DNA from: an uncultured Candidatus Saccharibacteria bacterium
GTDB lineage: Bacteria > Patescibacteriota > Minisyncoccia > Spechtbacterales > 2-12-FULL-38-22
Direction of reading: 5' to 3'
Assembly: GCA_964393575.1 (NCBI GenBank)
Contig: CAYMUG010000002.1
Span: 341-64,340, forward strand
DNA length: 64,000 nucleotides
The first letter of the stretch is position 1. Each line of letters opens with the position of its first letter. The translations under genes and the position numbers were made by a program. The notes under the pieces are model-generated. The model saw only the letters and a program-made list of their open reading frames with translations. It made no database searches and had not been told where the DNA came from. Positions 175-50,746 of this stretch are shown here, piece after piece.

Positions 175-798
175 TCACTTCCGAGTCCGAGCGGACGCCA
201 CACCGATGAAGTCGTCGCGAAGGTCGTCCCATAGGTGGCGGACGAGGAGATTCCACCCATCGAAGAAGCCGACGTTGAAGCGGCAGCCGACCAAGTGCAC
301 GGACGATGTCCTCACGTATACGTTCGGAACGAGACGGATACCCCGAACCTTGGCGTAGGTGGTTAAGAACCACGTTGCTTCGGCCGCGTTTGGAACGCGC
401 TCGTTGCCGTTGAGGAGAGCCTGCTGTTCATCCCACGTCTTGTTGATGGAATTGGGAGCAGGATCCTTGTGGACGACGAGCCACGTTGCCCCGACCGTGT
501 CGGAGCGAGCGAACGTCTGGCGATTGTCCGTGAACCACGGATCGTTCTTACGGTAGAAGAAATCCGTCGAGAGTTCGTGGATGTCCAGAAAGTTCATCTC
601 GTTCGGCGGGCCGGGAAGAACGGCGAAGCCGTTGTCGCGCGCCCACCGGAGCACTTTTTCTTCAGGAAGTGTCCATGCAAGCTCTTCGAGCTGCGTTGCG
701 GTGTACGGGGCGTCATACGCTTCTGCGACCTCCAGTGGTCTAATGAAGTCGTTACCAAGGATGTCGAAAGCTGGCTGAAACGTTGGAATGGTAGCCAT
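175..798 (-). CDS. hypothetical protein (207 aa) encoded in a GC-rich island
   Basis: It is a long ORF with AAGGAG 7 nt upstream of the ATG. Its GC content (~58%) is far above that of the rest of the window. I recognise no domain. Confidence 0.5.
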   Translation of the reverse strand: MATIPTFQPAFDILGNDFIRPLEVAEAYDAPYTATQLEELAWTLPEEKVLRWARDNGFAVLPGPPNEMNFLDIHELSTDFFYRKNDPWFTDNRQTFARSDTVGATWLVVHKDPAPNSINKTWDEQQALLNGNERVPNAAEATWFLTTYAKVRGIRLVPNVYVRTSSVHLVGCRFNVGFFDGWNLLVRHLWDDLRDDFIGVASARTRK

Positions 799-7815: not shown

Positions 7816-9413
7816 TGAAAAATCTTTTCACTAAACAAAACATTATATTTTCTGCATCATTAGCACTTGTTGTGTTAACAGGGTTAGGTATTATTCCCCG
7901 TTTTGCCGCGTTTTTAGTTTTAGGTTTGTATCTTTTTTACCTTGTTTTTGCCCCTCTAAACAGAGGAGTGGAAATATTTTTACGCTCAATCCCTATTTTT
8001 ATAGCTTTGCCAATAACCGAGTCCTTCGATAATTTTAATATGTGGCGCTTGCTTTTATTGGTGTTATTTTTGAAATGGGCTTGGGAGGTAAATATTTTTA
8101 GGATGTTGAGACGCGGACTGGATAAGCTTTTATACGGAGGTCTGAATATAAGAAAATATAGCATTGAGTTTTTCGGAATTTTATTTTTCGTATTTGCAGG
8201 TATTTCTGTTTTTGTAGCTTTGGACACAACAGCTGCTGTAAAACGCCTTATTTATCTTGCAAACGGGGCCTTCTTATTTATCATTACAGTTTCATTAATA
8301 AGAAGTAACAAAAATTATCTCAATGGTTTTCTCAAAAATTTTGCTTATTCGGGTATTCTGGTTGTTGTCATAGGGTTTGTACAATTTATTTCCGCTTACT
8401 TTACTCAGCCGTGGATTTTTCATTACTGGTGGGGGCAAGTCGTAAGCTTAAATTTATACGGCAGGGAATGGGCTGATATTGTTACATTTTTCGGAAATAC
8501 ATGGTTTAGTTATTCAGGGGACACTCTGCGTCTGCGAATGTTCAGTATTTTCCCGGACTCTCACTCTTTCCCGTTGTACGTAATTATGACAATACCCGGT
8601 CTTTTGTATATGGTTTCCCGCAAACTATCTGAATTTAAAAATTATATATCAAGCAAAAATTATAAATTTAAGCTCATACGTTTTTTCAAATCAAGGAGGA
8701 ATTTATTTTTTGTTTTCGGTTTTGCCTTGATGAATTTAGCCCTAATTTTATCCGGAACCCGGGGTATCTGGGTAAGCGGACCGTTAGCTGCGCTAACGTT
8801 TTTACTTTTTTGGAAATTTAAAACAGATAAACGCTTCACTAAAGTTGCCACCGCCTGGCTAACTGTGTTTTTAATTATGTTTGCGGCATATTTTCTAATA
8901 GTATCATTTCCGCAATTTCAGGATACGGAATTCAGCTCTTCAGCTACCGTATCCAGAATCAAAAGTATTACTGATTTCGGAGAGATATCCAATAAGGGGC
9001 GTATAAATATATGGCAAAAAACACTAAGCTTTACAGTGAAAAGCCCTGTATGGGGTACCGGTATAGGAAATTATCCGCTTGTTCTCTATGAGCCGCAGTC
9101 GGCTATGCAGGCGGGTGCCAGTGCCCATAATATATATTTGCATATAGCGTCCACTATTGGCATTTTTGGCTTGTTGGCGTTTTTGGGTTATATTTTTGAA
9201 ATTGTACGAAGGGGTATTATATATATAAAAAATAACCCACGCACGCAAGAAGGGTTGTATGCTGCCTTGACCCTTTTTGCGTTAGCGTGGGTGGGGGCAT
9301 ATCTTATGACTGACGCTACGCTTTATGACGGGCGGGCGCTACTTGCTTTTATGGCATTTACGGGCATAATTACAGGCCTCCTGTCTCAGCCCATTAAAAG
9401 AACTAACAACTAA
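7815..9413 (+). CDS. polytopic membrane protein, O-antigen ligase/polymerase-like (Wzy_C)
   Basis: About 12 TM segments and an LSGTRGIW loop motif. Confidence 0.6.
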   Translation: MKNLFTKQNIIFSASLALVVLTGLGIIPRFAAFLVLGLYLFYLVFAPLNRGVEIFLRSIPIFIALPITESFDNFNMWRLLLLVLFLKWAWEVNIFRMLRRGLDKLLYGGLNIRKYSIEFFGILFFVFAGISVFVALDTTAAVKRLIYLANGAFLFIITVSLIRSNKNYLNGFLKNFAYSGILVVVIGFVQFISAYFTQPWIFHYWWGQVVSLNLYGREWADIVTFFGNTWFSYSGDTLRLRMFSIFPDSHSFPLYVIMTIPGLLYMVSRKLSEFKNYISSKNYKFKLIRFFKSRRNLFFVFGFALMNLALILSGTRGIWVSGPLAALTFLLFWKFKTDKRFTKVATAWLTVFLIMFAAYFLIVSFPQFQDTEFSSSATVSRIKSITDFGEISNKGRINIWQKTLSFTVKSPVWGTGIGNYPLVLYEPQSAMQAGASAHNIYLHIASTIGIFGLLAFLGYIFEIVRRGIIYIKNNPRTQEGLYAALTLFALAWVGAYLMTDATLYDGRALLAFMAFTGIITGLLSQPIKRTNN

Positions 9414-9580
9414 TAACCGACAACCCACAACTAACAACTAACAACTAACAACAAATGACAAATGACAAAAGAACAGATTAACAGATTAACATAATAAAAA
9501 TCCTAAATTCTAATACCTAAATCCTAAACAAATTCAAAATTCAAATGTTCTAAATTCTAAACCGTTTTGAATTTTATATT
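9401..9580. repeat. low-complexity intergenic block of short tandem repeats (caactaa x3, caaatga x2, cagattaa x2, ctaaattctaa x2, aattcaaa x2)
   Basis: Read directly. Related short repeats occur at 2600-2625, 28036-28052, 60722-60745 and 60810-60835. Confidence 0.6.
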
Positions 9581-38800: not shown

Positions 38801-40375
38801 TTAGTTATCGGTTGTCTCCTCATTATGCGGTTGTTTTTCCGGAATTTCAATGATGATCGTGGTTCCTTCTCCCTTTCCCTCACTTTCCGCTTGTATTGTG
38901 CCGTTATGACCTTCTATTAACATTTTAGCAACATACATTCCCAAGCCGGTTCCGCTGGCTTGTTTTTCTTCTCCTCTGCCCCGCTGAAAACTTTCAAAAA
39001 GATTTTCTTTATCTTCCTTAGTAAGCCCTATTCCTGTATCCTGTACATAGATTTGCACGGTATTTTTAAATTCATCTCTCTTAATGCGCAGTGACACCCC
39101 TCCTTCCTCAGTGTATTTTATAGAGTTGTCCACTAAATTGCCTACCACCTGCTCTATTTTTTCACTGTCCACCTCTACTTCCACCGGTTCCTCCGGCTTG
39201 TTCCAGGTGAAGCTAAGCCCTTTTTCTTCTGCAGGTTTTTTCATTTCACCGACTACAGTATCTATAATTGCGCGTAAGTCCTGTTTTTTAAAGTTAAACT
39301 TAAGTGTGCCCTTCTCGGCACGGGACAAGTTCAAAAAATCTTCCACAAGACGTTGCATATTTTCATTGGAGTGGTACATATTATTTACGACACGCAACTG
39401 CTCTTTGCTTAGCTTTCCGAAGTCGCCCTCGCGAAGCATTGAAATGTATCCCTTCAATACCGTAATCGGGGAACGTAGTTGATGAGAAGCAATAGATAAA
39501 AATTCGGATTTCTTTTCGGATACTTCCTGTAGAGCATTTATTTCTCTTAATGTGCTTCTTACAAGTAAAATACTGATAATAATTACCAATATAAAGAGTC
39601 CTCCGTCAACCAAATATTCTCTGGGTGTATCAGCCAACAGCGCGTTAATGAGAAACACAATAATAAGAAGTGCTGCAAATAACTCTGTAGCTATAACTTT
39701 TATATTGAATAACTGATGTTTGAATATCGCATAAGCAATAGAGGCAACAAATATTAAAACGGATACATTAGCCACCCAATTCAATTCAAAAAAGCCGAAA
39801 TGCGGAGGATATAGGTTGGTAAAAACGGACACCAGAATTGCCAGTGTTGTTCCCACCAAAACATATAAAGCCTGGAGTTTTTTTATACCGGAACTCCGGG
39901 TGTAATATTTATATAAAATCAAAATCCCGGCAGGAAAAAATGTTGAAAAATATAATATATATATCCACGAACCCCAGCCGAAATTTATTATATTTTGTCC
40001 ATTTTCTATATATTCCCCTCCCCTGATTAATACATCCGGCCATATGAATATTACAAGCAGAGGTAAAAAAATAAGAGTTAAAAATATTTTTTGTTTTTTA
40101 GAAATCTTTTCTTTGGTAAATGAAAGGGTGAAATATACATATAATATCGGGATAAGCGAAGCGGTTGTATACAAAATGTGAGCCCAATAAGCTACTGCTT
40201 GGCCTGAATCAGCCGATTGGAAAAACAGCATACTCACAGACCAAGCTATAATAAACAAATCCATTACAAAAAAAACTCTTGCTGATTCTTCTTTTCTGTT
40301 TTTTATAAATGTAACAACTGCCAAAACTGCAATCGCAAAAGTTGCTACACTGATTGTAATGTTAATCAAACTCAT
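38801..40375 (-). CDS. sensor histidine kinase with an N-terminal multi-TM sensor domain
   Basis: About 8 TM segments, followed by an H-box (SIASHQLRSP) and an HATPase (GTGLGMYVAK). Confidence 0.85.
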   Translation of the reverse strand: MSLINITISVATFAIAVLAVVTFIKNRKEESARVFFVMDLFIIAWSVSMLFFQSADSGQAVAYWAHILYTTASLIPILYVYFTLSFTKEKISKKQKIFLTLIFLPLLVIFIWPDVLIRGGEYIENGQNIINFGWGSWIYILYFSTFFPAGILILYKYYTRSSGIKKLQALYVLVGTTLAILVSVFTNLYPPHFGFFELNWVANVSVLIFVASIAYAIFKHQLFNIKVIATELFAALLIIVFLINALLADTPREYLVDGGLFILVIIISILLVRSTLREINALQEVSEKKSEFLSIASHQLRSPITVLKGYISMLREGDFGKLSKEQLRVVNNMYHSNENMQRLVEDFLNLSRAEKGTLKFNFKKQDLRAIIDTVVGEMKKPAEEKGLSFTWNKPEEPVEVEVDSEKIEQVVGNLVDNSIKYTEEGGVSLRIKRDEFKNTVQIYVQDTGIGLTKEDKENLFESFQRGRGEEKQASGTGLGMYVAKMLIEGHNGTIQAESEGKGEGTTIIIEIPEKQPHNEETTDN

Positions 40376-41525
40376 ATCTGTGTTGTATTAACCGAAAAAC
40401 ATTTTCCAGAGTTTTATTTTTTATTACACCTGTATAATTCTGGTATTCTCCTATTTGAAAATCAGAATTTTTAAATAATTTATCTAATTCCTCTATCTTT
40501 GAAAAATCGAGACGACCCAGAGAAAAATGTTTGTCGGTTTTTTGATTGATGGTTAGCAAGACAACTTCGGCAAGACATGAAAAAAGATCGTGTTCGCCGG
40601 CAAGTTCTATATTTGGCTTTACAGTAGTGTTGGGAGAATAAATTATCCCTGCCTCTGTTACAACAATGTCTTTTCTTTGGTTAATTACATCGGGATCAAC
40701 ATCAGAAGGTTGGGCATCGTCCACAACTATTGTGCCCGAACTTAAATTTTCTTTATGCAAAACAAATTTCTCCGCATTAGTAGCTGTAATGATAATATGT
40801 GCTTCTTTTATTTTATTAATATCAAAATGCGTGCTGATTTTTGTTCCCGGGTTTTGTTTTTTTAAACTATCTCTAAGTGCTTTGACTGTTTTTTCTTTAC
40901 GTTTTACGTCAAACAGCATCAACCGATTGAATTTATAATTTGCCAAGAATCTTGAAACATTATTACCCACAGAACCTGCAGCACCAACCACCGCCACATT
41001 AAGCTTTTCTTTCTTTAATTCTCCGCGTTGAATTAAAGAAAGCGTTGTTTCTGCGACCGCCTTAACAGTGGCCGGGTACCCGTTTGTCAGTGAAACAGGA
41101 GATTTCTTTTTTAACGCGGATCCTCCTTTTGTAACCGAGGGAGTAAGAGCGCCTAACCCCGCAATTCTTGCTTCCATCTTAGACCCCAAACGTAATGCCC
41201 TGTGTATCTTTCTCGTAGCAAGGCGGCGGTTTTTTAATATCTGTTCAGGCAAAAGCATAATACCAACGGTCCATCCTGTATATATTGTGTCATTATAGTA
41301 AGCTTTGATTCTATGAACTCTAATCGGCCACATTAACCTGGCTAAAAAATGCAGGAGAAAATCAGGAAATGTTTTAAGCATAGGAAAATGTTTTTCAATA
41401 TCTTTTCTGTGCCTCGGATGGATTATAAAGATAAAATCCGCGCGTTTTGATGGCGCCCGTTTTAACCCATACTCTATAAATAAATCCTCTAAGTTGGTTT
41501 TGAAAAATTTAATAATCTGTTTCAT
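40362..41525 (-). CDS. acyl-ACP/acyl-CoA reductase-like (AAR family) Rossmann-fold oxidoreductase
   Basis: It is colinear with cyanobacterial AAR. VGAAGSVGNNVSRFL provides the NAD(P) site. The conserved Cys sits in FSCLAEVVLL. Confidence 0.5.
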   Translation of the reverse strand: MKQIIKFFKTNLEDLFIEYGLKRAPSKRADFIFIIHPRHRKDIEKHFPMLKTFPDFLLHFLARLMWPIRVHRIKAYYNDTIYTGWTVGIMLLPEQILKNRRLATRKIHRALRLGSKMEARIAGLGALTPSVTKGGSALKKKSPVSLTNGYPATVKAVAETTLSLIQRGELKKEKLNVAVVGAAGSVGNNVSRFLANYKFNRLMLFDVKRKEKTVKALRDSLKKQNPGTKISTHFDINKIKEAHIIITATNAEKFVLHKENLSSGTIVVDDAQPSDVDPDVINQRKDIVVTEAGIIYSPNTTVKPNIELAGEHDLFSCLAEVVLLTINQKTDKHFSLGRLDFSKIEELDKLFKNSDFQIGEYQNYTGVIKNKTLENVFRLIQHRYEFD

Positions 41526-42203
41526 CTATATATTTGATAATTCTTCCACGCTTTTCCATACTTGAGCGCTGATTTGCTTGTAATCTTCTTCAGAAGAGTG
41601 AGTATATTTGAAAGGTACTCCGACCTTTATTGTAATATTCCTTTTTCGGAAAATTACTTCCTTCAACCTCATATTGATTCCGCCTTGAATATAAACAGGG
41701 ATAACTAAAGGATTGCTATGTTTAATAAGATAACCAACACCTCGTCTTGCCTTTCGTTTGCGCCCACGATTAGTTTTTGTTCTGCGTCCTTGCGGAAACA
41801 TACCCACCACGCCGTTGTTATGTAAAATTTGCAGCGATTCCTGCAATGCACTCTCTATGCCTATTCTCTTATCTAATTTTAAACTTCCATATATCCATAT
41901 TATTTGACCCTTAACAGGCACTCTAAACAATTTATCGTGAGCAAGATGCCTAACAGGAAATAGGTTCGGAAAAGCAACACTCAGCATAAAAGGGTCCGCC
42001 CAGCTTACATGGTTTGATATTATAAGTACAGGTTGCCTGCCCTCTTTTAACTTTTTAGTTGTGGACTCATCTTCGTATACCGCTTTCCAGTTTAAAAAAA
42101 ATCGAAAAATTCCCCGCGAGATCCTCCAGGTGGTTTTATACATAAATTTTGCTATCCAATATCTCATCTTTCGCAAACCTATTATTTTCTTACATTTTAC
42201 CAC
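41526..42203 (-). CDS. plsC: 1-acyl-sn-glycerol-3-phosphate acyltransferase family protein
   Basis: The NHVSWAD (HxxxxD) and FPQGRRT motifs are present. Confidence 0.8.
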   Translation of the reverse strand: MVKCKKIIGLRKMRYWIAKFMYKTTWRISRGIFRFFLNWKAVYEDESTTKKLKEGRQPVLIISNHVSWADPFMLSVAFPNLFPVRHLAHDKLFRVPVKGQIIWIYGSLKLDKRIGIESALQESLQILHNNGVVGMFPQGRRTKTNRGRKRKARRGVGYLIKHSNPLVIPVYIQGGINMRLKEVIFRKRNITIKVGVPFKYTHSSEEDYKQISAQVWKSVEELSNI

Positions 42204-42450
42204 AAACTATCCTAAAATTTTATCTGAAAATAGGGTTTTTGTTTGAAGTAAATTGTTTATCGTATGAATAGTTCCTCTATATTCCTCCTATATTAGTACT
42301 GCCTGTCAGATATTTTCATATTGATATATATAAATACCTTCTTAGTGGCATCTTTAACAAGCTATTGAGCTATTACGAGTATATTGACAAATATCTCTCG
42401 TTACCATTAAGATGATGGGGTGCCCTGTATGCGGACCTTAGGAGCGTGTC

Positions 42451-42606
42451 ATGAGCGAAAACACCGCACACGAGACCGGTTCTACGGAGAACACCCTTCC
42501 TATTCTTTTCAACGTTGCCGAAAGGGCGACTGATGTTTCCGTAGAATCTAAGCGTTTCGGAAGCGAAAAAGACACATTCTTAAACGGCAGCAGCGATACG
42601 GTGTAG
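42451..42606 (+). CDS. candidate graspetide (microviridin-like RiPP) precursor peptide, 51 aa; not in the supplied ORF track
   Basis: ATG preceded by AGGAG at a 6-nt spacing. The leader-like stretch TLPILFNVAERA is followed by a Thr/Ser/Asp/Glu/Lys-rich tail (TDVSVESKRFGSEKDTFLNGSSDTV). It sits immediately upstream of the ATP-grasp ligase. Confidence 0.5.
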   Translation: MSENTAHETGSTENTLPILFNVAERATDVSVESKRFGSEKDTFLNGSSDTV

Positions 42607-42709
42607 TAAACACTTAAGTACCTTTAAATAACGTGACATAGGAGGGGGTGCGGTAAATGCCGCGCCCCCAATATATGTACGGCAACCGAATGCGGAAAGG
42701 AGGGTACAG

Positions 42710-43693
42710 ATTATACTTATTATTTCTCACCACGAAGACACACATACTCTTCATGTATGCGAATTATTAGATAGTATTTACGGCGTCGAATACTGCGTAC
42801 TGGATTACAAGGAATATCCCGCTAACTTAAATATATCTTATGTTTTTGGGGCAAATAACAAAAACCTTCTCATTGAAATAGACCAAAATCGCACAATTGA
42901 ATTAAAGGATATTCGTTCTGTGTGGTTTAGAAGGCCTACATCCCCCCTCGCCTCTAACAAGGTTGAAGATAGAAATATACGTCAATATATAGAACAAGAA
43001 TCGAATGTTATGCTGTCTAATTTGATTCACGCAATACCCGGACAAAGATGGATTAGCAACCCAATCAATATGGAGCAGGCAGCGTATAAACCATATAACA
43101 TCAGAGTGGCTCAAGAGATTGGTTTTGAAATTCCTGAAACAATTATTTCCAATTCTCCGGAAGGTGTAGAGAAATTTATGCACAACCTGAACTTAGAATA
43201 TGTTGCACTAAAACCCGTGGAAACACCCTGGATTAAGTCAACTGACAATTCCTTTTTATTTTTTACAAAAAAAATACATAAAAACCGGATTTCGGAATGG
43301 CGAAAACAAATACAAGTTTGTCCGGTTATACTACAGGAATATATAGAAAAAAGCGTGGAGTTGCGCATTACTGTAATAGACAACCAGGTTTTTCCATGCG
43401 CGATACACTCTCAACGATCAGAACTCACCAAAGAAGACTGGCGAAAATATGACATTGACAACACGCCGCACGAAACATTCCAACTTCCGGAAGATATAAA
43501 ACAAAAATGCGTCGCCTTGCTAAAAAATCTCGGGATTAGGTTTGGATGTATTGATATGATTTTAACCCCTGAGAATCGATATGTGTTTTTGGAGATAAAT
43601 CCCGCCGGACAATGGCTTTGGATTGAAGAATTAACCGGTCTTTCCATTTCTAAAACTCTTACACACGCATTGGTTTATCCAACTGAAGCGTAA
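42710..43693 (+). CDS. ATP-grasp ribosomal-peptide maturase (MdnC/MvdD microviridin-ligase family) with a non-ATG start
   Basis: A pre-ATP-grasp domain (ILIISHHEDTHTLHV...SVWFRRP) is followed by the ATP-grasp fold. The reading frame is open from 42632. A strong AGGAGG is followed 6 nt later by ATT at 42710. No ATG, GTG or TTG occurs in frame before the GTG at 42920. Confidence 0.75.
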   Translation: MILIISHHEDTHTLHVCELLDSIYGVEYCVLDYKEYPANLNISYVFGANNKNLLIEIDQNRTIELKDIRSVWFRRPTSPLASNKVEDRNIRQYIEQESNVMLSNLIHAIPGQRWISNPINMEQAAYKPYNIRVAQEIGFEIPETIISNSPEGVEKFMHNLNLEYVALKPVETPWIKSTDNSFLFFTKKIHKNRISEWRKQIQVCPVILQEYIEKSVELRITVIDNQVFPCAIHSQRSELTKEDWRKYDIDNTPHETFQLPEDIKQKCVALLKNLGIRFGCIDMILTPENRYVFLEINPAGQWLWIEELTGLSISKTLTHALVYPTEA

Positions 43694-43698
43694 AGTGC

Positions 43699-43727
43699 CT
43701 AACCTGTCTCATCGACAGGTTTTTTAT
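43699..43727. terminator. terminator aacctgtc-tcatc-gacaggtt + T6
   Basis: It lies between convergent genes. Confidence 0.7.
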
Positions 43728-44254
43728 TATTGTTTATTTTTTATCTCTTTAATGTATTCATCTAATGAATTGAAGCCCATTTTTTTACGGCGAACATCAA
43801 CATTCTCTTTGTCTTCAATGGGAAGAGGTTTTACCTCTCCGTCCTCTGTTTTTGTAAATTGCGTGCCATAGAGTTGCCTATCCCCGGAATTGACACGTAC
43901 TCTATCTTCCAAATATGCAATTAGTTTTTGCTCTACCTCATCTTTGGGTTCTTTTTTCATTAAATTTAGAGCTTTCTTTTGAAACCTTACATCATCAGCG
44001 TGCTGAGTTAATAGCCAGGCATTTGTAGACGCTTCTTTGCCCACTTTAGATATTGTAGGCCACTCAATTTGGTTAATAATTTCCTTTACTTTTTTGGTGT
44101 GTTCTCGCGCAATATTTTGTATTTTTTTCATACATTCTTCAGTCATGCCTTTTTCTCTGCATTCCGCACGCATATTTTGATCTTTTTCAGCCATATTGTT
44201 TAATTGTTTAGCGATTTTTTGATACTCCATACGAATAACAGAACTTTGCAACAA
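43727..44254 (-). CDS. hypothetical cytoplasmic protein (175 aa)
   Basis: ORF. I recognise no domain. Confidence 0.45.
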   Translation of the reverse strand: MLQSSVIRMEYQKIAKQLNNMAEKDQNMRAECREKGMTEECMKKIQNIAREHTKKVKEIINQIEWPTISKVGKEASTNAWLLTQHADDVRFQKKALNLMKKEPKDEVEQKLIAYLEDRVRVNSGDRQLYGTQFTKTEDGEVKPLPIEDKENVDVRRKKMGFNSLDEYIKEIKNKQ

Positions 44255-44315
44255 AAATTTTAATTACGAATTCATTTTATGTATATCTGACGATATTTTC
44301 AATGTTTAATACGGA

Positions 44316-44341
44316 AAATCGCCCGCATTTGCGGGCGATTT
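44316..44341 (-). terminator. terminator aaatcgcccgc-attt-gcgggcgattt
   Basis: It lies downstream of the MMPL gene. Confidence 0.6.
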
Positions 44342-44348
44342 ATAATTA

Positions 44349-46640
44349 TTATTTAGTTGAAGTTAAAGGAGCGGTTAAAATGGAAGCACAAAATGAAAAC
44401 GCAATAATTGCCATACCAAGAATACCATAAGTTGCAAAAAGCGGCATAGGTGCCGTGGCAAGAACAGCGAATCCTATAATGCTTGAAATTGCCGCAGCAA
44501 GTGAAGCAAGCCCTGTTCCTTTACCGACAACCTCAAAAAGTGCATTATTCCTGTATCCCTTTTCACGGGATCGTTTAAAACTATAAGTAATATGCAGCGA
44601 GTAATCCACGCCAATGCCAAGTCCAACAGCAGCGATGGTCGCGGTGATGAAATTCAAATCAAAACCGAACCAGCCCATAAACCCGTATGTCCAAACAACA
44701 ACAAGAACCATCGGAATAAGTGTTTTAACGCTGAATCTGAACGATCCTGATACAGTCCAAAGCAGGAAAAGGATAATTCCTACCGCGAGAGCACCTGTTT
44801 TGATAGGTTCATTGGTTACCGCATTCAAACTCGCCTCACGGGTAAACGGCGGACCTGTAATTCCGTAATCAATAGTAACGCGACGAAGCGGCCTCAGATC
44901 CCGCTCAAGTTGTTTCCGGGCAGCGGTTACATTCTTGAGTTCTTTTGTGTCCAAAATTTCAATGCCAATACGCATTGCTTCGTTTCCATCCTCTACTTCC
45001 GTAATATCAGGTTTTCCGTACGGCATCACCAGGTTTTCATTGCTATCACGACCTAAAAACGGATTTTCTTTAAGATTATCAAGAGTAGCACCAATAGCAT
45101 TTTGTGATTCCTTGCGGCGGAGATCTTTGCCGTAGGCGTAGATAAAGGCCTCTTCGCCGCGTCTATCTCCCAGATGATCATCCACCAAATCCAAACTTTG
45201 TACAAAATTGGAATCCTGCATTAAGAAGTCGCTGGGACCAATGCTGCGTTCAACACGCGAAATACCGAAAACACTTACAACCGTTAATCCCGCTAAGGCG
45301 AGGATAACGATAAAACGAAAACGATAAATAGTTTTAAAAACAGGAGCAATCGAAAGAGCTGTCAGTTGCTTACGGGGTCGCTCTTTTTGCTTATCGCGAA
45401 TAACAAGAATAATCGGCATAACTATACCCATAATAAAAAATGCCGCAAATGCGGAAAAGATACCCGTAAAAGCGAAGGAGCGAATTGCCTCAACATTTGA
45501 AATACCGTTAGCACCGAAGGCAACAGCATCGGTTACAGCAGCAAGTAAAAGTATTGCGCCTATATCAATAAAAGCACGGCGGAGCGCTGCTCTATCTCGC
45601 AACAACAAAGAGCGTTCCTGTTCATACCGACGAATCACATACAGGTAAGAATCAATACCGAGCGCCATAAAAGCCATTGGTAAAATAACCTTTGTTGTGA
45701 TTGATGGTTTTATGAGGCCTGCGGTAATTCCGGGAAAACCCATAATCCAAACAAGCAATGCAGATAGTCCGACAAATGCTATAAATCCGATTCGCAGAGA
45801 ACGCATTAAGAGGCCGGTCAGCACGGCAAGAGCCGCCAATAAACCTACATTTCTGAGAAGGATCGGGGTTGAAAAGCCCTCTTCTTCAGCTTCAAGGTTT
45901 AGGTCTATACCTACGCCCAAGAGATTATACTCTTCTCCGTATAGATGTTTTTCAATCTCGCGGTTAAACTTTTCTTTTTGCAAAATATCTTCGGTGCCTC
46001 CGAGGGTTCTCCGGAAATAACCGCCGCCAAGCTTATTACTATCCGCCCGGATAAAAAATTCATATAACGGCGAAACCCACTTCTCATCAGTTTTATATGC
46101 CTGTGAAGAAAGCCGGAGATGAAAAAAGTCCGCATGAGCGTTATCGGCATTCAGAATACTTCCAATAACTTGTTCCACCTTCGCGGGAGATGCGGACTCA
46201 AGAGATGTGCCTTGGCGGTGCAATTTCGCATCAACCGCATCCGCTATAGTGTAAAAACCCAGGGTACCGGTTTTTCCGATTTGAGGGTCACGGAACGGAA
46301 CTAAAAACTCTTGCCCCAGCTCAGAATTACGCAAAGCATCCAGTTTATCTTTAAGTTCCGCTAAGGTTTTTTTCGTAAGAACATTTCCCTCTTTTTCGTT
46401 AAAAAGCTCATACGGAACCGCGTAAATCTCGGGAGGAAATTGCTTATCAACTTTTTCCTGCAAGTCAAAAACACGTCCCGGAGGATCCGTTGATGCTTCT
46501 TCTTGGTTACCGCTAATGCCTAATAATGCACCATAACCAAACAGTACAGTTAGTCCGAAAAATATTGCTATAATAAACTTACGGAGTCTCCATATTTTTC
46601 GCATGTATCCCCCGTTTCTTGTTTGTAAAAGAGCGTCCAT
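44349..46640 (-). CDS. MMPL/RND-superfamily membrane transporter
   Basis: Two 6-TM bundles with large extracytoplasmic loops and an SSD-like region. Confidence 0.8.
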   Translation of the reverse strand: MDALLQTRNGGYMRKIWRLRKFIIAIFFGLTVLFGYGALLGISGNQEEASTDPPGRVFDLQEKVDKQFPPEIYAVPYELFNEKEGNVLTKKTLAELKDKLDALRNSELGQEFLVPFRDPQIGKTGTLGFYTIADAVDAKLHRQGTSLESASPAKVEQVIGSILNADNAHADFFHLRLSSQAYKTDEKWVSPLYEFFIRADSNKLGGGYFRRTLGGTEDILQKEKFNREIEKHLYGEEYNLLGVGIDLNLEAEEEGFSTPILLRNVGLLAALAVLTGLLMRSLRIGFIAFVGLSALLVWIMGFPGITAGLIKPSITTKVILPMAFMALGIDSYLYVIRRYEQERSLLLRDRAALRRAFIDIGAILLLAAVTDAVAFGANGISNVEAIRSFAFTGIFSAFAAFFIMGIVMPIILVIRDKQKERPRKQLTALSIAPVFKTIYRFRFIVILALAGLTVVSVFGISRVERSIGPSDFLMQDSNFVQSLDLVDDHLGDRRGEEAFIYAYGKDLRRKESQNAIGATLDNLKENPFLGRDSNENLVMPYGKPDITEVEDGNEAMRIGIEILDTKELKNVTAARKQLERDLRPLRRVTIDYGITGPPFTREASLNAVTNEPIKTGALAVGIILFLLWTVSGSFRFSVKTLIPMVLVVVWTYGFMGWFGFDLNFITATIAAVGLGIGVDYSLHITYSFKRSREKGYRNNALFEVVGKGTGLASLAAAISSIIGFAVLATAPMPLFATYGILGMAIIAFSFCASILTAPLTSTK

Positions 46641-46780
46641 ATCATACCAAAATTAAACAAAAAATCAACAAAACAGCACTGCTTATCTAAGGGGTTGCAT
46701 ATAATACACTCATCTCATTAAAAAACAAATTGAATAACATTATTTACAACCTCCCTTGTCGCTTATTATATACACCTACA

Positions 46781-46808
46781 TTGACATTGTATATATATAG
46801 GGTATAAT
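46781..46808 (+). promoter_or_regulatory. sigma70-like promoter TTGACA-16-TATAAT
   Basis: TTGACA 46781-86 and TATAAT 46803-08. Confidence 0.5.
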
Positions 46809-46854
46809 AAAAAAAGTAACATACACCACCACAGCAAACTAAGGAGGTAAGACA

Positions 46855-47292
46855 GTGAATGATCCACCGAAAGCAGATCCCAAATCCTCTTATGATCATG
46901 GTTTTTTGAAAATTGCAGCTGTAATCCTTAACAACCATCCTCTTCCGTGGACAATTGAACGTGATTGGACTTGTGAAGTACATGCATCTGATGGTGCGAT
47001 AGTAGCAAAATGCGACAGAAATAAAGAAGAAAAAGCGGAGAATATCATCAGTTGTGCTAAAAGATTATCCAATAACCAGACTATACCTATAAGTCTGATA
47101 CACAGTTTGGACGATTTAGTTTTTGAGGTTTTCATACATCATAAACCACCATGGGAATATGATTCTGAAACGGGAAATTTGTTCGCGTCAGACGGGGTTC
47201 TAATAGCAGCTAATCTATCCGATGGTTGCGCAAGAGCTCTTTGTTACTGGGCTCAAGAGATGCAATATAAGTTAAGCAATTTTAATACATAA
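46855..47292 (+). CDS. hypothetical protein (145 aa)
   Basis: ORF preceded by AAGGAGG, with a GTG start. Confidence 0.45.
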   Translation: MNDPPKADPKSSYDHGFLKIAAVILNNHPLPWTIERDWTCEVHASDGAIVAKCDRNKEEKAENIISCAKRLSNNQTIPISLIHSLDDLVFEVFIHHKPPWEYDSETGNLFASDGVLIAANLSDGCARALCYWAQEMQYKLSNFNT

Positions 47293-47318: not shown

Positions 47319-47355
47319 AACACCCTCACAACATTCGTTGTGAGGGTTGTTTTTG
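47319..47355 (+). terminator. terminator caccctcacaac-attc-gttgtgagggtt + T-tract
   Basis: Hairpin followed by a T-run. Confidence 0.65.
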
Positions 47356-47385: not shown

Positions 47386-47414
47386 TTGACAAATTATTTT
47401 TAATATATTATAAT
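47386..47414 (+). promoter_or_regulatory. perfect sigma70 promoter TTGACA-17-TATAAT upstream of GC-rich island 2
   Basis: TTGACA 47386-91 and TATAAT 47409-14. Confidence 0.55.
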
Positions 47415-47456
47415 TAGGTAACTCAGTTGGTACGTTGACAAAAGAAAGGAGCAGGG

Positions 47457-48416
47457 TTGCCTAAAGTTCCCGCTCCCGTTGTTGTGGCGATCGTTATTTC
47501 AATTCTCGCGCTATGCGGTGCGGGATTTGTTGTTTTTAAGAAGAACGCTGAAGCCGAACAAGCTCGACTTCAGAATCAGCTTGAGCATTCGCAATCTCGA
47601 GCTGATACTTTGAAAAGCACTGTTGACGATATCTCCCCAAAGGTGAAGTCACTAAAAACCCGCGCCGAAGAGGCCGAAGAGTTAGAAAAAGAGAACTCCC
47701 GACTAAGGAAGGAGCTTAACAAAGAGAGAACAACCACGGAAACAACACAAACCAGAACGGAAGAAGAAGAGGAGAAGGAAGAGGAAGAGGTTTCTGAAAC
47801 ACCTTCCTCTTCATCGCCCAACCCCTCGCCTACACCGGAACCCAATCGGGTTCGCGGTCATGGCGAAAAGATGGTTTTGACGTTTGATGATGGAGGTGCG
47901 CCAAATAAAGTCACGGCCATTCTGAACATTCTGAACAATAAAAATGTTCAAGCTGTGATGTTCCTGAACGGAAGATGGGCACACGCCCATCCCGACTTAG
48001 TTCGCCGTATGCGAGCCGAGGGACATATCGTAGCAAACCATACTTGGTCTCACGCGAAGCTCACCGAACTTCCCGATGAGGAAGTTCGGAGGGAAATCCG
48101 GCGTGGCGCGCAGGAAGGTTCGGATCTGTTCCGCCCTCCGTACGGAGCCATTGATGCCCGTGTTCGCGGCATTGTGCAAAGCATGGGTCTTCGGACTATG
48201 CTCTGGGACATTGACACCCGCGACTGGGACAACACCTCGGCAGACGAGATTACCCGGATCACACTGAATAACGCCCGGCCGGGAGCTGTAGTGCTTCTGC
48301 ATCTCCACGGAGAACATACCGCAGAAGCGTTGCCGCGCATGATCGACGGTCTGCGCAATCAGGGCTATACATTTGGCCTTCCCGCCCCCGAGAAGGAGGA
48401 AAGTAATGCTACGTAA
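47457..48416 (+). CDS. polysaccharide deacetylase (CE4/NodB) with N-terminal TM, coiled coil and an acidic/Pro-rich linker
   Basis: The NodB motifs TFDDG, HTWSH and RPPYG are present. The gene is GC-rich. Confidence 0.8.
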   Translation: MPKVPAPVVVAIVISILALCGAGFVVFKKNAEAEQARLQNQLEHSQSRADTLKSTVDDISPKVKSLKTRAEEAEELEKENSRLRKELNKERTTTETTQTRTEEEEEKEEEEVSETPSSSSPNPSPTPEPNRVRGHGEKMVLTFDDGGAPNKVTAILNILNNKNVQAVMFLNGRWAHAHPDLVRRMRAEGHIVANHTWSHAKLTELPDEEVRREIRRGAQEGSDLFRPPYGAIDARVRGIVQSMGLRTMLWDIDTRDWDNTSADEITRITLNNARPGAVVLLHLHGEHTAEALPRMIDGLRNQGYTFGLPAPEKEESNAT

Positions 48417-48696
48417 AAAGTTGGTAGCTGCCATACTGATGGCCGTACTCGCAACAGCGAGTGCTGCCTCAGCAGCCCATGAGGTAATTGAGGCAAGCGA
48501 CCTCCGGGAAGAGAATACTCAACTTCAGGATGAAGTTGAATCACTTTCCGAGGAGCGTGAAACCCTTGAACGCTTCGCTCGGCTCCAAGAAAAACACGAA
48601 GAGCTGAGCGGGAAAGCGAAGAAAACCGACCAGAAAGTGCGAGATCTGAAAGAGAAAAAAACAGGGCTTACGCGAGCATTGGAGGAGCACCGATGA
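48406..48696 (+). CDS. small membrane-anchored coiled-coil protein
   Basis: ORF with a TM segment and heptad repeats. GC-rich. Confidence 0.45.
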   Translation: MLRKKLVAAILMAVLATASAASAAHEVIEASDLREENTQLQDEVESLSEERETLERFARLQEKHEELSGKAKKTDQKVRDLKEKKTGLTRALEEHR

Positions 48697-49442
48697 GAAA
48701 CGAATTTTTCGCTAGAGTCAATTTCTTCGTTGGCTTTACTGCAATCACGGCGATCATTGTCGCCGTTAGTGCCGCTTTGCTCCTCGTCACGAACGTCGAG
48801 GAGCCCCAACAGGCCAATGCTCAGCTAAAAGAGCAGAAGGCCGAGCTCTCTAGCAGCGTCAGCGAGATGCGCGAAAAGCATAAGGTGAGCGGGAAGCCTT
48901 CCCTCTCTCCTCAGGTTTCTGAACTCGAGGAGGGGGTTCAGAGACTTCGCTCGGAGGTCGGTACTCTTTCGGGGAAAAAGAAAAACCTCGAAAAAGAGGT
49001 TGCCGGACTTCGTGAGAATGTGCGCGAAGCCCGGGAAGCCCGGGAAGCCAGAGAAGCCGAAGAGAGGCAATCCCAATCCCGCCAGAGTCAGAGCGCTCAT
49101 AGCGGTCGCACTCCGGCAAGTGCGCGGGCACTCGGCCGCCAGATGGCCGCCCAACGAGGTTGGGCAGGCCGTCAGTGGCCATGCCTGAATGAGCTCTGGA
49201 GACGGGAAAGTGGATGGCGCTATAACATCCAAAACCATACCCACCGGCGCCAAGGTCGAGCTATAGAAAACTCGGCCTACGGAATCCCGCAGGCGTTACC
49301 TGGCAGGAAAATGGCCAGCCACGGCGGCGACTGGCGCACCAACCCACGTACACAGATAGCGTGGGGGTTGGACTACATCGCCGACCGTTATGGAACGCCG
49401 TGCAACGCACTGGCATTCCATAACCGAAAAAACTGGTACTGA
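48693..49442 (+). CDS. membrane-anchored coiled-coil protein with a C-terminal lysozyme-like (SLT/GH23-like) transglycosylase domain
   Basis: C-terminal W.CL..LW.RESGW...N......SAYGIPQA...WGLDYI..RYG.PC resembles actinobacterial SLT-type domains. Encodes REAREAREA in its coiled-coil region. GC-rich. Confidence 0.5.
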   Translation: MRNEFFARVNFFVGFTAITAIIVAVSAALLLVTNVEEPQQANAQLKEQKAELSSSVSEMREKHKVSGKPSLSPQVSELEEGVQRLRSEVGTLSGKKKNLEKEVAGLRENVREAREAREAREAEERQSQSRQSQSAHSGRTPASARALGRQMAAQRGWAGRQWPCLNELWRRESGWRYNIQNHTHRRQGRAIENSAYGIPQALPGRKMASHGGDWRTNPRTQIAWGLDYIADRYGTPCNALAFHNRKNWY

Positions 49443-49452
49443 CGCTCCAGAA

Positions 49453-49549
49453 GAGAGGGGGAGTCGGTACTCAGGTGAGTACCGACTCCCCCTCTCGACC
49501 TGTTCTTTAGTAAAAAGGTCCCCGCAAGTTATATACTGCGGGGTTTTTT
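49453..49549 (+). terminator. strong 19-bp-stem GC hairpin (49453-49494) followed by the terminator ccccgc-aagttatatact-gcgggg + T6
   Basis: Read directly. Confidence 0.6.
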
Positions 49550-49666
49550 ATTTTGTAATAGTCATCGTCATAGTGATTTTATGTCAGTGTCAGTGTTGGT
49601 GCCTGCCATCTGCCATTGGTCATAATGGTTTTACGTCATCGTCATAGTCACAGTCATAGTGGTTTC

Positions 49667-50746
49667 TCACATCCCTCTCTTCCAGATCCTGTACTTGTCT
49701 ACCGCCCAACTCAACCAATATTTATAATTTAATTTATAATCCCGCGCGTGAAGGTAGTCAGTTCTAAACCCGCCGAATCCTTTTTTGAACAAAGTAAGAC
49801 CGTACCAGGGATGGCTTTTATTTTCCTCGTCTTTTGCAATACCCCAAAAGTTATAATATTGTTTACCTTTATTTTTAGCGTCCGTAATCGCACTCCACTG
49901 CACAAGGTGTGAGGCGGGAATTTTTTTATATTTTTCGTTTGTTGTATTCGCGCCATGGTGGTAATAAGCGCTGTGCCCGTAAAAAACAATAATAGCAGAT
50001 GCAACGGGGGTATCATTGTAATAACCTATATAAATCCCTATACCCTCTTCACCGAAATGATTGATTTGCGCTCTTATAAACTTTTCCGAAAATGGCGTAA
50101 ACCCGTGTTTATGCGCGGTTTCGTTGTATAATTTTAGAAAATCTTTAATCAAATCATCTGAAGTACCGCTTTTTACTTCCACCCCCTCTTTTTTAGCGCG
50201 TCTTACAAGGTTTCGCGTATTCTTGCGCATTTCCGCCATAAGTCCGTCTTCGGACTTAGATAAATCTATTGTCCAGGTAGTTTCAGCATGCATATAAATG
50301 GGTGCTGAACGATATCCCAATTCTTCAAATATCTCTCTGTTTTCTTCCGTATCTTTCAATAAAGGGCTTACTCTTATAAAACTTGTGTTTTCAGATTTTC
50401 CTAATTGTATAAAATAATCCGTAACTGTTTTTAGAATTTGAAATTTGTAATTTGAAATTTGTTTGTTACTTGTTATTTGGGATTTGAAATTTCCGTGTTC
50501 GCTTTGGGCGAACACGGGCCCGTGTGGAACAAATAAAAAATTACCGCGCCGCGCGTGCACTTTTACAACCATAGCAGCCGCTATAAGTTCTTCGTTTTTG
50601 TAAATACCTAAACGCCACACCTTATCCCCTAACCCGTGATTTAACTCTCCCCACGCCCACGAGTGTAGAAAAGAATGTTGCGTGCAGGATGTAATAAAAC
50701 CATCCCATCGTTCTTTATTTTCTATTTCTTTTATCTCCAAATCCAT
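49667..50746 (-). CDS. FemAB-family peptidoglycan interpeptide-bridge aminoacyltransferase
   Basis: FemABX fold signatures are present (SFLHSWAWGEL, FLFVPHGPV, a C-terminal GNAT-like half). Confidence 0.75.
   Translation of the reverse strand: MDLEIKEIENKERWDGFITSCTQHSFLHSWAWGELNHGLGDKVWRLGIYKNEELIAAAMVVKVHARRGNFLFVPHGPVFAQSEHGNFKSQITSNKQISNYKFQILKTVTDYFIQLGKSENTSFIRVSPLLKDTEENREIFEELGYRSAPIYMHAETTWTIDLSKSEDGLMAEMRKNTRNLVRRAKKEGVEVKSGTSDDLIKDFLKLYNETAHKHGFTPFSEKFIRAQINHFGEEGIGIYIGYYNDTPVASAIIVFYGHSAYYHHGANTTNEKYKKIPASHLVQWSAITDAKNKGKQYYNFWGIAKDEENKSHPWYGLTLFKKGFGGFRTDYLHARDYKLNYKYWLSWAVDKYRIWKRGM

Follow-up and report, generated by a model that had tools for sequence, protein, structure and literature searches.

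The segment at 47.39-49.55 kb of the DNA presented above is probably a horizontally acquired, self-contained three-gene operon for cell wall remodelling by stalked enzymes. We refer to this segment as the island, to the products of its genes as P1, P2 and P3, and to the entire analyzed stretch of 64,000 nucleotides (contig CAYMUG010000002.1) as the window. The elements of the island are as follows.

47386..47414, + strand: sigma-70-type promoter, TTGACA-17 nt-TATAAT, with a 12/12 match to the consensus
47457..48416, + strand: P1, 319 amino acids (aa), start codon TTG at 47457, GGAG 5 nt upstream
48406..48696, + strand: P2, 96 aa, start codon ATG at 48406, AAGGAGG 5 nt upstream
48693..49442, + strand: P3, 249 aa, with a transmembrane (TM) helix, a helical stalk and a lysozyme-like C-terminal domain
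49026..49058, + strand: 9-bp tandem repeat GAAGCCCGG, 3.7 copies (TRF score 52, 91% matches), encoding REAREAREA in the P3 stalk
49453..49496, no strand assigned: GC-rich perfect inverted repeat, arms of 21 nt, 2 nt apart, 11 nt past the P3 stop codon
49520..49549, no strand assigned: intrinsic-terminator hairpin CCCCGCA...TGCGGGG, stem 49520-49543, T-runs on both strands

Three open reading frames (ORFs) of the + strand (47457-48416, 48373/48406-48696 and 48693-49442) fill the island. Neighbouring genes overlap, P1 and P2 by 11 nt (P1 stop and P2 start), P2 and P3 at a shared ATGA (P2 stop and P3 start); therefore, the three genes appear to be translationally coupled. Read from the sequence, they form one transcription unit with one promoter and one terminator. 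For P2, the start is more likely ATG 48406 than the listed TTG 48373, because AAGGAGG is found 5 nt upstream of the former. The source annotation puts the start of P1 at GTG 47484 (P0121). In a collection of 15 billion proteins, identical entries exist for P1 (P0121) and for the FemAB protein encoded next to the island (P0241), both from the same NCBI contig, and there is no identical entry for P2 or P3. The source annotation probably left P2 and P3 uncalled or flagged them as pseudogenes, though P3 is intact.

The base composition of the island is distinct from that of its surroundings. The mean GC content (guanine plus cytosine) of the window is ~39%, while between 47.7 and 49.5 kb it climbs to 0.50-0.655 in 200-nt windows. 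In 1-kb windows, the values are 0.544 for 48001-49000 and 0.506 for 49001-50000, compared to ~0.36-0.44 elsewhere. The GC content of the individual genes is 0.522 (P1), 0.519 (P2) and 0.573 (P3), and the GC content at their third codon positions (GC3) is 0.514, 0.505 and 0.618, respectively. The background, represented by the 48 other ORFs of the window, has a GC content of 0.395±0.022 and GC3 of 0.349±0.036, which puts the GC3 of the three genes 4.3-7.5 standard deviations above it. P2 follows the same pattern by codon position (0.66/0.39/0.50) as P1 and P3. Since the excess is present at synonymous sites, it is not a by-product of amino-acid content. Thus, both the ORF coordinates and the GC windows agree with the initial annotation, made from the sequence by a model, which had described three co-directional GC-rich genes, and the compositional analysis it had called for reveals an island that is foreign at synonymous sites.

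P1 consists of a hydrophobic anchor (residues 8-26, the single Kyte-Doolittle hydrophobicity peak), a Glu/Lys-rich helical region (residues ~30-95), a linker (residues 96-131) and a CE4/NodB deacetylase domain (residues 135-307, positions 47859-48377). The linker, TEEEEEKEEEEVSETPSSSSPNPSPTPEP, is rich in Glu as well as in Ser and Pro, and includes SSSSPNPSPTPEP. The Pfam family PF01522 matches residues 135-247 with E = 3.8e-31 (108.1 bits against the cut-off of 23.1). All five CE4 motifs are intact (TFDDG142, HTWSH195, RPPY226, DTRDW253 and LLH280); they cover the Asp-His-His metal triad as well as the catalytic Asp and His, and align with those of PgdA (2c1g) from S. pneumoniae, the best solved relative (9.9e-32). 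Judged by profile and motifs, P1 is a complete CE4 enzyme. It stays below every NCBIfam equivalog cut-off (PdaB 144/237, PdaA 119/298, PgdA 113/800 bits); therefore, its putative substrate, be it N-acetylglucosamine (GlcNAc), N-acetylmuramic acid (MurNAc) or another polysaccharide, is inferred rather than assigned. The entire architecture of TM segment, coiled coil, linker and CE4 domain recurs in P0135, which is 41% identical to P1 over residues 34-308 and 52% identical in the CE4 domain. P0135 is encoded on a contig of 63% GC, preceded by a gene for a TM-coiled-coil-only protein and followed by one for an LPxTG protein. Thus, the anchored coiled-coil protein with a NodB domain and a Glu-rich linker proposed at the outset is what P1 turned out to be.

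P3 combines a stalk with a different catalytic head. In the structural model, a TM helix (residues 9-33) is followed by helices 39-65 and 73-135, the latter being one continuous helix of 63 residues, and by a globular C-terminal domain. The 9-bp repeat encoding REAREAREA, given as threefold in the initial annotation, is indeed present in the stalk-coding part. The C-terminal 'Apf C-terminal-like' domain spans residues 141-249 (positions 49113-49439), with the predicted catalytic Glu172 encoded at 49206-49208. Family NF052397 matches residues 161-249 over its full 80-position profile (108.4 bits against the cut-off of 40), and PHROG 12661 'transglycosylase' matches the domain at 2e-36. P3 ends in NWY, which corresponds to the xWY ending of the family; for Apf proteins, both a GWY ending and 'putative transglycosylases' of lactic acid bacteria have been described (PMC3017865). 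Of the alignment columns, 19 are invariant in 68 family sequences and 21 in 47 sequences, P3 itself being counted in both sets, and P3 keeps them all.

The relationship of this domain to the lysozyme-like enzymes is more distant. P3 scores under the gathering threshold of the Pfam SLT family PF01464 (13.3 vs 21.3 bits, E = 0.061), and four homologues 54-60% identical to its domain pass this threshold (24.3-24.8 bits). The domain model superposes on lytic transglycosylases and lysozymes, indicating a lysozyme-like fold, and a Foldseek search with the P3 model retrieves viral proteins of the SLT/LT_GEWL type. The Foldseek search against PDB returned 0 matches, and sequence and profile searches of PDB yielded coiled-coil noise and a weak match to lysozyme C (E = 0.29). 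By its profile match, P3 belongs to NF052397, and its domain is predicted to fold like a GH23 lytic transglycosylase yet stays under the Pfam SLT threshold. The initial annotation had seen an SLT-like C-terminus, and a lysozyme-like nature of the domain is not refuted, given the NF052397 and PHROG 12661 matches, the homologues above the SLT cut-off and the fold superposition.

Some insight into the putative active site comes from the weak profile alignment (E = 0.29) with human lysozyme 1di4. The E172-S173 pair of P3 is invariant in the family. In the alignment, the Glu of this pair falls on the Glu of the lysozyme W-E-S-G-Y motif, the catalytic Glu35, and the family stretch S-G-A-Y-G-I-P-Q falls on S-T-D-Y-G-I-F-Q. 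The invariant Ala of the family thereby faces an Asp, Asp53 of lysozyme. Among GH23 enzymes, the presence of one Glu and no such Asp is indicative of lytic-transglycosylase chemistry. We therefore favour this chemistry for P3, because Ala replaces the second carboxylate of c-type lysozyme; on the same grounds, the label 'muramidase-like' given earlier does not hold as established. No direct biochemical assay of the Apf C-terminal-like domain was found in the literature searched. Motif 3 of the tape measure protein of mycobacteriophage TM4 has been shown to hydrolyse peptidoglycan (PMC1796659); we considered a link to this motif and rejected it, as BLASTP revealed no similarity between the P3 domain and TM4 gp17.

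P2 can be described as a stalk without a head. Its signal-peptide-like N-terminus (MLRKKLVAAILMAVLATASAASA) is followed by a predicted coiled coil of ~70 residues rich in Glu, Lys, Arg and Leu, without any catalytic domain. Searches of Pfam, NCBIfam and PHROG families with P2 gave nothing beyond coiled-coil noise. Compared pairwise, P2 and the P3 stalk are 28% identical over 92 aa (E = 0.005). Thus, the 'small TM coiled-coil protein' of the initial annotation is correct as to the coiled coil, and its N-terminus resembles a signal peptide more than a simple TM anchor. As a separate observation, the 63% GC metagenome contig with P0135 (L025, 2-2431) encodes, in addition to P0135, a TM-coiled-coil-only protein, an LPITG-anchored surface protein and an ECF-type (extracytoplasmic function) sigma factor; it is the sole other place where we saw a headless stalk protein beside a stalked CE4 enzyme.

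The operon is flanked by expression signals on both sides. The promoter at 47386-47414 is located in AT-rich DNA of native composition, 43 nt ahead of the P1 start and past the terminator of the preceding ORF at 47322-47347. The perfect sigma-70 match noticed initially is present at all 12/12 positions. A second perfect site occurs at 46781-46808, and the regional total of such sites is not above the shuffled expectation; therefore, the 47386-47414 promoter stays a consensus match only. The preceding ORF (46855-47292, 145 aa, native GC) has no family in four libraries. It is preceded by a separate TTGACA-16-TATAAT promoter (46781-46808), and its terminator (47322-47347) comes immediately before the island promoter.

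At the other end, the arms of the inverted repeat (49453-49473 and 49476-49496) are 100% complementary and fold into a 20-bp stem with a 4-nt loop. The hairpin region 3' of P3 has a minimum free energy of -64.5 kcal/mol (z = -9.97). The inverted repeat occurs once in the window, and no Rfam family matches the hairpins at the gathering score. The terminator at 49520-49549 is probably bidirectional and shared with the convergent FemAB gene, judging by its T-runs. A 19-bp GC hairpin plus a terminator had been reported here; both elements are present, with the stem being 20-21 bp long instead.

To place the island in its genomic context, we compared the window with related loci. The host is a Ca. 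Spechtbacteria-like Patescibacterium: the FemAB protein encoded directly right of the island matches only Patescibacterial relatives, the best of which among 5.8 billion proteins are from Ca. Spechtbacteria (55-58% aa identity, with 57-58% for the closest). The block of abhydrolase, MurF, DegT and FemAB genes is kept in 11 loci, none of which contains a homologue of P1, P2 or P3. More broadly, island genes are missing from 16 Patescibacterial loci (12 genome loci and 4 contigs of the two closest lineages). The window and the two closest lineages (L019/L020 and L021/L022) share the gene order GreA, glutaredoxin, SodN, S26, abhydrolase, MurF, DegT and FemAB on the left side and, beyond FemAB, the order (histidine kinase), AspS, S11 peptidase, MraY, amidohydrolase, MurD, FtsW and MurG. 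In L019-L022, FemAB is directly followed by the kinase or AspS, whereas in the window the two are separated by ~9-11 kb (38.8/40.4-49.6 kb). Most of this distance is taken up by a lineage-specific segment of native GC (38801-47292). It codes for a histidine kinase (partly shared with L021), a PigE/acyl-ACP-reductase-like protein, an acyltransferase (40% identical to one encoded downstream of FemAB in L004), a RimK-like ATP-grasp protein, DUF6624, an MMPL/HAE3 RND transporter and the orphan 145-aa ORF. Within the variable segment between AspS and FemAB, only the GC-rich operon is compositionally aberrant.

The island is thus lineage-specific and occupies that end of a variable segment which is nearest to FemAB; the Spechtbacteria-like clade appears to have a hot spot of variation downstream of FemAB. 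Three earlier claims can be considered against these data. An orthologous block in relatives, which would have spoken against an insertion, is absent in every relative examined (all at <=58% identity). Horizontal acquisition is upheld by the foreign GC3, the absence in relatives and the closest named homologues belonging to another phylum. The insertion beside the FemAB/DegT/MurF cluster is accurate in that the island adjoins FemAB; the site, however, is the edge of a ~9-11 kb lineage-specific segment and not an otherwise collinear locus.

The same data bear on the explanation that the segment is either an assembly chimera with a higher-GC fragment or a set of native genes with GC raised by their amino-acid composition, which we consider highly improbable. 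It is true that the source is a metagenome-assembled contig, and that P2 and P3 lack an exact protein entry whereas P1 and FemAB have one. However, a chimera needs two junctions, each exactly intergenic, and would also have to leave P1 directly behind a native promoter and ribosome-binding site, and the operon with a terminator that also serves the convergent FemAB gene; moreover, both island flanks are syntenic with Spechtbacteria. As to native genes, raised GC at third codon positions rules out a purely amino-acid effect, and the genes are absent in relatives.

Homologues provide clues about the possible donor. More than 2,000 proteins match the P3 domain with 52-66% identity, and its named homologues are from Micrococcales and other Actinomycetota, with either the DUF348-G5-Apf or the TM-coiled-coil-Apf arrangement. 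The named best matches of P1 are also from Actinomycetota, and its CE4 domain is nearest (51-55%) to proteins with a composition of the high-GC type. The named top matches of P1 and P3 do not include any from Patescibacteria. Genes for P3-like proteins with the full layout are chromosomal in two actinobacterial loci of ~70-75% GC (L003, 4476-5204, and L026, 8001-8690), where the order is prenyltransferase, PIN-PhoH, Apf gene and fumarase. No CE4 gene was found in L003 or L026. In M. tuberculosis, the CE4 deacetylase Rv1096 is encoded between phoH2 and fum, where L003 and L026 have the Apf gene; a connection of the two enzyme types at this locus is a lead only. Full-layout P3-like proteins are also encoded on phage-like contigs, and the ~220-aa proteins with a TM segment, coiled coil and Apf domain from actinobacteria and phages include P0042, P0103 and P0020. 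Among GenBank phages, the P3 domain is present in 207 records, 196/207 being actinophages and others including Lactobacillus phages; the best match is gp42 of Streptomyces phage Warpy (58.9%). In IMG/VR, at least 586 contigs have the domain, and 53/83 fetched loci have GC <0.5. Because of this homologue pattern and the island's own GC, a higher-GC Gram-positive (Actinomycetota-like) bacterium or its phage is favoured as the putative donor. We would nevertheless treat 'actinobacterial' as a flavour rather than a demonstrated origin: the flavour noted initially fits the named best matches, but the P3 domains of many low-GC phage contigs are just as similar.

The frequency of the P3 domain in phages raises the question of whether the island might be the remnant of a prophage lysis or virion wall-degrading cassette (an endolysin-like enzyme with spanin- or holin-like proteins) that has no current cellular role. 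The 207 GenBank records are annotated as endolysin, transglycosylase or tape measure, and the IMG/VR contigs add to them. In addition, the best-scoring P3 homologues with readable context (P0001 and P0002), as well as the full-length P0020, are on phage-like contigs, and the N-termini of P1 and P2 have weak PHROG matches to 'Rz-like spanin' (5.4e-6 and 3e-4). These spanin matches, however, span only the TM segment and coiled coil and were judged generic. There is no phage structural, replication, integrase or holin gene nearby, the neighbours being MMPL, DUF6624, ATP-grasp and FemAB. None of the 83 viral loci with the P3 domain has a CE4, P2-like or P1/P3-stalk-like gene within 6 kb, and CE4 and Apf did not co-occur in these 83 loci, in 3 actinobacterial or high-GC loci or in 2 phage-like contigs. 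Finally, no catalytic or family-invariant residue has been lost, translation of the genes appears to be coupled and a consensus promoter is present. A decayed cassette is thus a very unlikely explanation.

Taking the island as an acquired and functional operon, we propose how its products may work. The peptidoglycan-remodelling module of a deacetylase and a lysozyme-like enzyme, put forward in the initial annotation, is backed by the CE4 motifs, the PgdA match, NF052397 and the fold. Each protein would be exported or anchored by one N-terminal hydrophobic segment and carry a long, charged alpha-helical stalk, P1, P2 and P3 being oriented N-in/C-out or secreted. The CE4 head of P1 would be a metal-dependent de-N-acetylase whose closest counterparts are peptidoglycan GlcNAc deacetylases. 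P3 would provide a compact GH23-like domain (~105 residues), most likely a lytic transglycosylase cutting the MurNAc-GlcNAc bond, and P2 a stalk alone. With ~70-100 helical residues at 0.15 nm each, the stalks may hold the catalytic heads ~10-15 nm off the membrane, in the wall layer, and they probably associate with each other and with P2 via coiled-coil contacts. Cleavage of glycan by P3 could in this way be coupled to nearby de-N-acetylation by P1. De-N-acetylation changes how readily lysozyme-type enzymes attack, and P3 itself may be one of the enzymes affected. In the simplest case, the operon would serve the controlled remodelling of peptidoglycan in the cell that carries it, beside whose MurF-DegT-FemAB genes it is located.

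The same enzymes could instead be directed at another cell. The module would then be an episymbiotic or predatory tool, in which the CE4 and lysozyme-like enzymes open, or 'mark then cut', the wall of a Gram-positive host at the contact site, with the genes coming from the host lineage or its phage. Such a device would be akin to the prey-wall deacetylases of Bdellovibrio and their partner, the lysozyme DslA. An obligate episymbiotic lifestyle is common to all cultivated Patescibacteria, and it has been proposed that this group (also known as CPR, the candidate phyla radiation) attacks host walls with secreted peptidoglycan hydrolases or lytic transglycosylases (PMC11623550; PMC8080830). A CPR cell can be infected by a phage (prophage) of an actinobacterial host, which adsorbs to it and replicates inside (PMC13578794), and such a crossing would constitute a transfer route. 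Gram-positive bacteria and their phages supply the nearest named homologues of P1 and P3, and long stalks could push the enzymes past the cell's own wall. On the other hand, P1, P2 and P3 look membrane-tethered or short-range and not freely secreted, the operon adjoins the cell's own wall-synthesis genes, the TM-coiled-coil-Apf protein of Actinomycetota is a housekeeping-looking chromosomal gene, and no secretion-system or pilus gene adjoins the island. We therefore think that a tool against host cells is unlikely. The more specific scenario, in which a Spechtbacteria-like episymbiont took the stalked enzyme pair from a Gram-positive (Actinomycetota-like) host or phage and uses a tripartite complex with P2 to deacetylate and cut the host wall at the attachment site, is decidedly unlikely.

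A number of observations weigh against an acquired operon whose products remodel the cell's own wall together. That P1, P2 and P3 physically associate is conjecture, and the three-gene combination is absent elsewhere in the loci examined. P2 has no real homologue among 1.84 billion representatives, the one weak match (E = 1.9e-4) being to a repetitive coiled coil. The membrane topology of P1 is ambiguous by the positive-inside rule, and the P3 model has low confidence for the ~9-residue insertion in the loop that links the E-S motif to AYGIPQ. As for the transfer itself, there is no integrase, transposase or mobility gene among the island neighbours, and no direct repeats or att-like duplications occur at the island borders; the window also has no tRNA. 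The mean identity of the P3 domain is 56.6% to high-GC-type and 56.0% to low-GC-type sources. In a neighbor-joining tree of 209 domain sequences, the window P3 pairs with a viral contig of 71% GC inside a viral clade of mostly ~40% GC, and neither the tree nor the identity comparison for these sequences singles out a donor. Furthermore, the relatives are at most 58% identical, which leaves room for loss in the relatives or for an old acquisition.

There are additional features of the window that deserve mention. One other segment is GC-rich: positions 175-798 (- strand, flanks 60-1000) hold a single 207-aa ORF with GC of 0.579 and GC3 of 0.715, which has no Pfam, NCBIfam, PHROG or PADLOC match. 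As with the P1-P3 island, an AT-rich promoter-like region precedes it, and a long GC-rich hairpin with a T-run follows. A composite motif, made up of runs of the GTCATN hexamer around a TGCCTGCC..GGCA core, occurs at 1379-1490, 49555-49660 and 101-116, only beside the two GC-rich segments of the window. Allowing for <=2 mismatches, GTCATAGTCATAGT has 7 matches compared to 0.12 expected, and TGCCTGCCNNCNGSCA has 6 compared to 0.05 expected. The copy at 1370-1500 folds very stably (-66.5 kcal/mol, z = -9.6), while the one at 49550-49668 does not. The motif is absent in 106/106 fetched loci. Candidate identities are an intergenic repeat of the host, a MITE-like element (miniature inverted-repeat transposable element) and an integration-site remnant; its putative association with GC-rich segments involves two sites. 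Farther away, an intergenic cluster of heptamer tandem repeats is located at 9401-9561 (AACTAAC x7.4, ACAAATG x2.7, AACAGATT x2.5 and AAATTCT x9.4).

The island is of interest for several reasons. Because of their minimal genomes and dependence on other cells, Patescibacteria reveal something of their lifestyle through imported genes. Here, a CE4 deacetylase and an Apf GH23-like enzyme, the latter with a domain widespread in Gram-positive bacteria and their phages, would have arrived jointly and in ready-to-express form beside the cell's own peptidoglycan-synthesis genes. If P1-P3 act together, they offer a tractable case for the enzymology of the Apf C-terminal domain and a test of whether the acetylation state directs glycan cleavage in a monoderm wall. 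If a host wall is the target, the operon hints at the host range of an uncultured lineage.

Comparison with known systems shows both shared and distinct features. P1 resembles the CE4 peptidoglycan deacetylases, such as PgdA (2C1G), PdaA/PdaB/PdaC of Bacillus and Rv1096 of M. tuberculosis (PMC4087242), in its NodB domain. It shares with them the motifs TFDD, H[ST]xxH, RxPY, DxxDW and LxH, as well as a predicted extracytoplasmic location. It differs from PgdA at the N-terminus, which consists of a TM anchor, a coiled-coil stalk and a Glu/Ser/Pro linker instead of the PgdA N-terminal domains, and this architecture is common only to a few uncharacterised proteins such as P0135. Members of NF052397 include Lactobacillus Apf (PMC3017865), the actinobacterial DUF348-G5-Apf and TM-coiled-coil-Apf proteins and, in phages of Streptomyces, Gordonia, Mycobacterium and Lactobacillus, segments labeled 'transglycosylase/endolysin/tape measure'. 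P3 is like these members in its C-terminal domain of ~105 residues, which ends in (G/N)WY and is 52-66% identical, and unlike them in its Patescibacterium host, in the operon with a CE4 gene and an orphan coiled coil and in the ~9-residue insertion between E-S and AYGIPQ. Compared to GH23/SLT enzymes and goose-type lysozymes (Slt, MltF, MltC/E, EtgA, phiKZ gp144 and the N-domain of phi29 gp13), the P3 domain is shorter than classical SLT. S. pneumoniae PcsB (a coiled coil with CHAP) likewise has an extracytoplasmic catalytic head on a long coiled coil. However, it has another catalytic domain, no FtsEX partner is found near the island, and the NCBIfam PcsB matches are weak and limited to the coiled-coil parts (E = 3e-4 to 0.04); the likeness is architectural and not homologous. 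PADLOC matches to JetC were dismissed as coiled-coil noise. Bdellovibrio pairs deacetylation of the prey wall with DslA, a GH23-type lysozyme specific for deacetylated substrate (PMC7511926). This is a functional analogy only, as the Bdellovibrio enzymes are secreted into the prey, whereas those of the island are predicted to be membrane-tethered on stalks and co-transcribed. Overall, the island represents known kinds of enzymes in an unusual host and arrangement, and is best seen as horizontal transfer of a tidy but fairly ordinary sort, not as a system of a new kind.

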